From Opitutaceae bacterium (GTDB lineage Bacteria > Verrucomicrobiota > Verrucomicrobiia > Opitutales > Opitutaceae): a stretch of DNA of 64,000 bases. Made by a program: the position numbers and the translations under genes. This document shows positions 49,383 to 50,021 of the stretch, one piece after another. The DNA is taken from assembly GCA_036675625.1 (NCBI GenBank), contig JAKFEQ010000066.1, positions 47,725 through 111,724 of the forward strand, given 5' to 3'. Each line of letters begins with the position of its first letter. Position 1 is the stretch's first letter. The notes below the pieces were generated by a model, which worked only from the letters and a program-made list of their open reading frames with translations, had not been told where the DNA came from and made no database searches.

Positions 49383-49640
49383 TTAGGCGGCGACGGCTTT
49401 GCGGGTGGGCGAAGGCGGATTTGTCTTTGCCGTTTCCGCGAGCTGCGCGAAGAAGGAATCCCGGCGTTCGCGCGCCACCCGAATGTCCTTTGTGCCGAGC
49501 GAGCGGCGGATCCGCTCCTTGGTGAACGGCGTGGGATGCACGGTGTAGTGCAGGAACCAGGTGCCGTGGTTGTTCCACAGGTGGTGATTCGGATTTTCCG
49601 CGCGGACGCGGATGCCGGACAGTGCGGTGAGGGCGTTCAT
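49383..49640 (-). CDS. Small basic hypothetical protein resembling integrase arm-type (DUF6538-like) DNA-binding domains
   Basis: NPNHHLWNNHGTWFLHYTV...RIRRSLGTKDIRVARERRD; directly downstream of a riboswitch-like leader. Confidence 0.7.
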   Translation of the reverse strand: MNALTALSGIRVRAENPNHHLWNNHGTWFLHYTVHPTPFTKERIRRSLGTKDIRVARERRDSFFAQLAETAKTNPPSPTRKAVAA

Positions 49641-49683: not shown

Positions 49684-49718
49684 AAAACAAAAAACCGACC
49701 TAGGCATCAGGTCGGTCT
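49684..49718 (-). terminator. Intrinsic terminator (expression platform) upstream of the 85-aa gene
   Basis: Minus strand AGACCGACCT-GATGCCT-AGGTCGGTTT-TTTGTTTT, 43 nt before the ATG. Confidence 0.85.
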
Positions 49719-49725
49719 CGTCTTC

Positions 49726-49849
49726 GGGAGCGTTCTTGGTTCGAGACTCAAGGTGAGCCTCGCACATCCGGGGTCTCCCCCGATCCACCGTGGCCGCTCC
49801 CGGCCCGGTTGGCGGAGTCGGCTTGTTAAGGCCGGCTCGTTCCTGATGC
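49726..49849 (-). ncRNA. SAM-I/IV-type riboswitch aptamer (candidate)
   Basis: Hand-folded P1 GCAUC/GAUGU, J1/2 AGGA, P2, P3 CC-AA-CC/GG-U-GG core, P4 with GAGA loop, P5, and PK-2 GGGAGC/GCUCCC. Confidence 0.8.
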
Positions 49850-50021
49850 GAACGAGAACCTGAAGATCGGTTCTTCTTCGTCCAGCCTTTTTTTCCGGAT
49901 TTTTGTCATAGCCGGAACGCTGGAGGAAACCGCTCAGATCCGTCCAAATCACCTGGGCGAACCCCTGGCCGCGACCGGAGCCGATACAGGCTGAGACCGC
50001 TGCGCCGGTGCGAAACGCGGG

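Follow-up and report, generated by a model that had tools for sequence, protein, structure and literature searches.

The window analysed in this study is a stretch of 64,000 nucleotides from an Opitutaceae bacterium. Its minus strand carries a short gene for a basic miniprotein, which is preceded, in the order of transcription, by a promoter-like motif, an aptamer of the SAM-clan type, an intrinsic terminator, and a conserved 5′ UTR. The coordinates of these features are listed in Table 1.

Table 1. Coordinates of the leader, the gene behind it, and the flanking elements in the window.
Feature	Position	Strand	Description
Promoter-like motif	49856..49894	-	A-run 49894-49888, CTGGAC 49885-49880, 17-nt spacer, CAGGTTC 49862-49856
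Whole element	49853-49684	-	Aptamer with P1, P2, P3, P4, P5 and PK-2, then terminator
Aptamer core	49763..49850	-	P1 encloses J1/2, P2, P3 and P4
P1	CGCAUC 49850-49845 / GAUGUG 49768-49763	-	Read from sequence
P2	49838-49815	-	GAGCCGGC-loop-GCCGACUC, single C.A mismatch
P3	49812-49785	-	CC-AA-CCG-GGCC[GGGAGC]GGCC-A-CGG-U-GG
P3 AA bulge; opposing unpaired U	49810-49809; 49787	-	
Loop L3	49801-49796	-	GGGAGC
P4, internal hairpin	49782-49769	-	CGGGG-GAGA-CCCCG, loop GNRA-type
P5, external hairpin	49762-49742	-	Directly 3′ of P1
PK-2, 3′ strand	49731-49726	-	GCUCCC, complementary to L3 GGGAGC
Intrinsic terminator	49716-49684	-	12-pair stem and U-run, terminator scan
Antiterminator	49849-49842 with 49711-49704	-	GCAUCAGG with CCUGAUGC, exact complementarity
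Conserved 5′ UTR, terminator to start codon	49641..49680	-	CCUGnnGCGCGAU ... AUCACGCAUC-AUG
Regulated gene, 85-aa ORF	49383..49640	-	Basic miniprotein, ends ..KAVAA

The promoter-like motif has the family consensus A7-nn-CTGGACG-N16-CACGTTC. Of 103 distinct upstream regions of this leader type, 94 bear the motif, and in 79 of these CTGGAC precedes GCAUC by exactly 36 nt. The motif is presumably a promoter whose start site would roughly coincide with the first base of P1, and transcription probably begins at, or just before, P1. It resembles ECF-sigma promoters, which we take to have the form GGAAC-N16/17-CGTT, rather than TTGACA/TATAAT. As a candidate for a −35 box or a conserved operator, the heptamer TATGACA (49910-49904) was rejected, since it was found in only about one-third of the leaders, where it lies 52–60 nt upstream of P1. 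At one related locus (L187), TATGACA is part of a perfect 15-bp palindrome (GTCATAG-A-CTATGAC) and could be an operator half-site.

Architecture and class of the leader

All the structural elements and coordinates listed in the initial annotation were found on the minus strand. P2 forms one continuous helix of 8 bp, closed by a loop of 8 nt; it is unsplit and has no K-turn. The nucleotides of the SAM-clan pocket are present, namely AUC..G..A in J1/2, the AA bulge of P3 with its opposing U, and GAUG in the 3′ strand of P1. The folding of the 187-nt stretch gave a z-score of −4.1 against shuffled sequences, and its minimum free energy (MFE) structure included P1–P5 and the terminator. Loop L2 is variable and A-rich, and no complement to it was noticed by eye in J3/4, the PK-1 position.

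The Rfam search of the whole window gave no match at the gathering thresholds, and RF01725 (SAM-I/IV) emerged with E-value thresholds only. The RF01725 match (49854-49726) covered model positions 1-99, the full length of the model. Its score was 32.9 bits (E = 0.0011 for the local search and 0.0058 over the whole genome of 7.67 Mb), which is below the gathering threshold of 41.1 bits, a curation threshold and no structural feature. P4 appeared as an insertion in this alignment, and the P3 core CCAACC..GGUGG, which had been pointed out as a variant of the clan core, aligned to the RF01725 consensus. This was the only SAM-clan match in the 7.67 Mb genome. No RF00162 (SAM-I) match was found in the genome at E ≤ 1, and clan competition with cmscan retained SAM-I/IV as the best model. 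A full-length RF01725 match was present in 25 of the 36 genomes of the genus, with scores of 28–44 bits that were nearly always under the threshold, at 28–40 bits. A few relatives exceeded 41.1 bits (44.6, 43.7, and 41.8 bits).

SAM-I/IV riboswitches are defined by an unsplit P2, the absence of PK-1, a P4 helix, and P5 with PK-2 (PMC6890682). SAM-IV riboswitches are defined by the absence of P4 and by P2a/P2b, PK-1, P5, and PK-2 (PMC6890682; SAM-IV cryo-EM). A crystal structure of env87, a member of SAM-I/IV, is cited in PMC6890682. The leader in the window shares with SAM-I/IV the binding core, the unsplit P2 without K-turn, the internal P4, the external P5, and a PK-2 between L3 and the tail. 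It differs from SAM-I/IV in that P2, P4, and P5 exceed the consensus length and in that its target is an uncharacterised miniprotein and no methionine or SAM enzyme. A further difference is the terminator, in which the 5′ arm and loop imitate the 3′ strand of P1, so that the antiterminator is formed with the P1 5′ strand. SAM-I (RF00162) agrees with the leader in P1–P4 about a four-way junction and in the nucleotides of the ligand pocket, but it carries a K-turn in P2 and PK-1 and has no P5 or PK-2, whereas P2 is unsplit and P5 and PK-2 are present here. SAM-IV (RF00634) has P5, PK-2, and the binding core in common with the leader, but it has P2a/P2b and PK-1 and no P4, whereas the leader has an unsplit P2 and a P4 that is present and covarying.

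Covariation among related leaders

Two alignments were used for counting pairs: A2, with 43 non-redundant leaders of close orthologues, and A5, with 22 aptamers from more than 10 genera. Whole alignment with MAFFT misaligned the 3′ halves of the divergent aptamer classes, so pairs were counted on these two alignable sets only, and PK-2 and the competitor boxes were parsed by script. In A2, 97.6% of the cells were paired, and the proportion dropped to 31–42% in controls in which the partner was slid by 1–3 columns; over both alignments, the slid controls gave 31–43%. Double-sided changes were found at 15 pairs in A2 and at 12 pairs in A5, values that none of 500 shuffles attained.

The covarying elements in A2 were P2, P4, P5, and the terminator. 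Two-sided changes occurred at 5–6 of the 8 pairs of P2 (A2 and A5) and at 5 of the 8 pairs of P5 (43 sequences). Of the 43 sequences, 18 had AU and 10 had CG in place of GC at inner pairs of P4, and 12 had a C-G to U-A double change in the terminator stem. P1, P3, and PK-2 did not vary in these closest orthologues; the covariation of these three is therefore drawn from more distant, partly hand-parsed sequences. P1 was 100% paired in both the 43 and the 22 sequences, its only changes being C-G/U-G and G-U/G-C, and P3 showed a C-G to U-A double change in the A5 leaders L151/L143.

At least nine complementary solutions of L3 and tail were found for PK-2 across lineages. They were GGGAGC/GCUCCC, GGGAGU/ACUCCC, AGGAGU/ACUCCU, GGGAAA/UUUCCC, GGGAAG/CUUCCC, GGAGA/UCUCC, CCACG/CGUGG, UCACG/CGUGA, and AUAGG/CCUAU. 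In a script-parsed comparison that counted Watson-Crick pairs only, 10 of the 14 distinct L3 loops formed at least five pairs with their own tail, and the same was true of 32 of 182 combinations with foreign tails.

The ligand-pocket nucleotides were invariant in more than 100 relatives. Such conservation bears on the reading that the leader no longer senses a ligand, being either a relic or a protein-binding site, for example one for autoregulation by the miniprotein. In favour of this reading, the miniprotein is basic and could bind nucleic acid. Against it, almost perfect conservation of the pocket throughout the phylum is accompanied by compensatory drift of the peripheral helices. Such a pattern is the signature of a working aptamer and not of a relic, and we regard the loss of ligand sensing as extremely improbable.

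The assignment to SAM-I/IV made in the initial annotation therefore stands. RF01725 is the best and sole clan match and covers the full length of the model, the architecture is that of SAM-I/IV, the core nucleotides are kept, and compensatory changes occur in P2, P4, P5, and the terminator among orthologous leaders and in P3 and PK-2 across genera. The riboswitch class is already known, and the element is a further, sub-threshold member of it. It belongs to a genuine SAM-I/IV clade, present in hundreds of opitutaceous and other verrucomicrobial species, that lies just under the Rfam threshold and is for that reason missing from standard annotation.

Terminator, competitor strand, and the proposed switch

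The segment CCUGAUGC sits in the 5′ arm and loop of the terminator. The competitor box CUGAUGC, which pairs with the 5′ strand of P1 and lies partly within the terminator loop, was invariant. Its AUGC, which lies in the loop, did not change, whereas the other loop bases varied (C, CC, CCUU, CCAUC, ACUU, and others). A C-to-U change in the stem was compensated in the terminator and became a G-U pair in the antiterminator. The energy of the P1 duplex was −5.4 kcal/mol, and that of the antiterminator duplex GCAUCAGG:CCUGAUGC was −12.4 kcal/mol. With the transcript cut off at nt 151, so that the terminator lacked its 3′ half, the MFE structure was the antiterminator, with −70.2 kcal/mol. The mutually exclusive antiterminator that had been proposed from the sequence is thus supported both by the exact complementarity and by the fold of the 151-nt transcript. 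The full-length state with P1 and terminator reached −77.1 kcal/mol against −70.2 kcal/mol, so the RNA favours the terminator even without ligand. In these folding models, the ON state would therefore depend on kinetic, co-transcriptional folding.

We read the leader, with a probability of about 0.85, as a SAM-I/IV riboswitch acting as a transcriptional OFF switch on the monocistronic 85-aa miniprotein gene. From the sequence, the ligand is presumably SAM, and the switch in vivo would be turned off by it. In the proposed mechanism, SAM would occupy the P1/P3 pocket that J1/2, the AA bulge, and the unpaired U in P3 make up. Both P1 and PK-2 would be held, CCUGAUGC would be free to build the terminator with AGGUCGG, and RNA polymerase would halt at the U-run. 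When SAM is lacking, the weak 6-bp P1, which includes two wobble pairs, would open, and GCAUCAGG, comprising the P1 5′ strand and J1/2, would capture CCUGAUGC once this is transcribed. The terminator would then be blocked and the mRNA of the miniprotein would be made. With the terminator formed in the presence of SAM and the antiterminator in its absence, the miniprotein would be produced at low SAM.

Four relatives (L141 and L112-L114) have no terminator and carry the competitor box CUUGAUGCG, CGUGAUGCG, or CAUGAUGCG. Each box complements its own P1 5′ strand and J1/2 (CGCAUCAAG or CGCAUCAUG) with compensatory changes, and it also complements CGCAUCA-UG at the start codon. The use of the P1 5′ strand as competitor is thus common to the terminator in the window and to the start-codon sequestor in these relatives. 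The OFF mechanism predicted in the initial annotation agrees with these compensated boxes, with the invariant AUGC of the loop, and with the fold of the truncated transcript.

The 5′ UTR that separates the terminator from the start codon was strongly conserved in 68 distinct leaders and may have a role of its own. Its segments GCGCGAU and AUCACGC are able to pair, which gives a hairpin beside the start codon. One could therefore suppose that the terminator is constitutive or otherwise controlled and that translation initiation, through this hairpin, is the regulated step. Besides the conservation of the UTR, the terminator-less leaders with a start-codon sequestor and the thermodynamic preference of the full-length RNA for the terminator would fit this reading. 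The box inside the terminator, however, is invariant, and the terminator stem covaries, which indicates a functional terminator. The second box, a CCUGAUGCG-like sequence after the terminator, was considered as an alternative partner of P1 and rejected, since its two central bases vary freely and the pairing with the P1 5′ strand cannot be maintained. Translational control of this kind is in our view highly improbable, and transcriptional control by the terminator is retained as the main reading. The second box resembles a decayed copy of the start-codon sequestor of the translational variants.

The miniprotein family and its gene neighbourhood

The gene behind the leader had been described as an orphan gene, which proved incorrect: the ORF belongs to a conserved family with homologues throughout the phylum and is under purifying selection. 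The median dN/dS of the 85-aa ORF was 0.064, indicating that this selection is strong. The miniprotein is single-copy in its own genome. At 90% identity the family comprised 1192 clusters, all named hypothetical; at 50% identity there were 928 representatives, and the best 150 of these were all 47–159 aa long. The AlphaFold2 model showed three beta strands and a long helix with moderate confidence (pLDDT 72.7). Foldseek with this model gave no significant match in PDB and BFVD, and a profile search of PDB sequences with the miniprotein gave chance matches only.

The Pfam family DUF6538 (PF20172) matched the protein of the window with 23 bits (E = 6.4e-5), below the gathering cut-off of 27 bits, and matched 37 of 41 family members at E ≤ 0.01, the best at 8e-6. 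The match covers about 30 residues (..K.R.R.SLGTKD...A..RRD..). DUF6538 is, as we assume, the N-terminal arm-type DNA-binding domain of tyrosine integrases. The topology of arm-type domains is a three-stranded sheet with a helix. The miniprotein has in common with this domain the profile match and the predicted sheet and helix, but it is a stand-alone protein of about 85 aa without a catalytic domain, and its score lies below the cut-off. The phylum scan gave three weak matches to frames of 443–480 aa, which is consistent with DUF6538 being an N-terminal domain of integrases. PF20172 was also searched in the miniprotein's own genome, where the only matches were the miniprotein and one spurious out-of-frame match. 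The miniprotein may be a regulator.

The miniprotein of the window ends in ..KAVAA (49383-49400), and distant relatives end in ..RRAA, ..GRAA, ..GIAA, or ..FAA. The tmRNA tag of the same genome (contig C68) is GKTEEMPLAA, and the ..AA end may be a degradation signal.

In GTDB species genomes, the miniprotein is encoded at more than 560 loci. Among the 80 of them that were listed, all but one were titled Opitutaceae or other Verrucomicrobiota, the exception (L095) being titled Anaerolineales. The aptamer was located upstream in all 80 of these protein-anchored loci, two of which are cut by a contig end or Ns. Within the family Opitutaceae, 106 of the 201 genomes and 37 of the 60 genera had the miniprotein; phylum-wide it was found in 71 of 401 genomes, with other classes among them. 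Twenty divergent loci were taken from different genera, and 15 of them had a full-length RF01725 match upstream and 4 more an aptamer recognised by eye. The aptamer was also present at 11 of 20 distant loci from the phylum scan. In Verrucomicrobiota, this family of stand-alone miniproteins thus nearly always lies behind a SAM-I/IV riboswitch, and the pairing of RNA and protein family persists across families and classes of the phylum. One miniprotein paralogue without a riboswitch was found near a tRNA gene in a four-copy genome (L155, G179:C1:1482339-1482524).

At three loci from three genera (L005, 1499-1637 and downstream; L156; L159), the riboswitch is followed by a miniprotein paralogue and then by metK, the stop of the miniprotein and the start of metK adjoining or overlapping. 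At another locus (L002), the same aptamer type lies ahead of a homocysteine methyltransferase-like gene. Given the phylum-wide pairing together with the metK operons, the miniprotein is a well-founded candidate for a new participant in SAM homeostasis, and the riboswitch offers a direct experimental handle on it. A point against the main reading is that the known link of the target gene with sulfur metabolism consists of metK adjacency in some genomes only.

A SAM-I/IV descendant with a shifted ligand, such as SAH or another SAM-related compound, would fit the non-classical, unusual target gene, the sub-threshold score, and a J1/2 that reads AUCAGGAA instead of the Rfam consensus AUCAAGAG. In the structures of SAM-I and SAM-I/IV, SAM is contacted by the U of AUC, by the J1/2 G, by the AA bulge and the unpaired U in P3, and by GAUG of the P1 3′ strand. 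All these positions are kept in the leader, and the same aptamer type precedes metK and the homocysteine methyltransferase-like gene in other lineages, both of which argue against such a shift. We consider a changed ligand quite improbable and SAM the presumed ligand.

The only SAM-clan riboswitch of the 7.67 Mb genome serves a conserved, uncharacterised protein and no enzyme of methionine metabolism. The 250-nt leader of metK in this genome (contig C32) gave no Rfam match at E ≤ 5 and showed no obvious shared motif. These two results invite, and do not prove, the hypothesis that riboswitch and miniprotein form a two-tier SAM-sensing cascade conserved across Verrucomicrobiota. In such a cascade, the miniprotein would be a stand-alone nucleic-acid-binding regulator of the arm type, made only at low SAM. 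Its C-terminal ..AA degron, like the ..PLAA of the tmRNA tag, would keep it short-lived, and its targets would be methionine and SAM genes, among them metK, which in this genome has no recognisable riboswitch of its own. We offer the cascade tentatively, as a possible but somewhat unlikely explanation.

Some other loci with related features were observed. In the same genus, SAM-I/IV aptamers lie ahead of another uncharacterised family (MKPVQSATFREAV.. and MKTKTVEELPVLTLP..) at three loci (L027, L003, L029). A sub-threshold match to the cobalamin riboswitch (27.4 vs. 31.5 bits, E = 1.7e-4) was found in the genome of the window, on contig C58 at about 275060-275297 (L162:461-698, plus strand), where it adjoins, divergently, a homocysteine-methyltransferase-like gene.

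In an Akkermansia-like genus of the same class and another family, with genomes of 2–3 Mb, the orthologous miniprotein gene is located downstream of an L28-like gene. Its leaders (L181-L183, L201-L220) lacked a SAM-I/IV aptamer and matched no Rfam family at E ≤ 5. They carry instead TTTTTTTGAAC-N17-GTCT(A/C) at a fixed spacing, as well as a long hairpin with a U-run behind it. This leader may represent another kind of attenuator or a riboswitch class not yet described.
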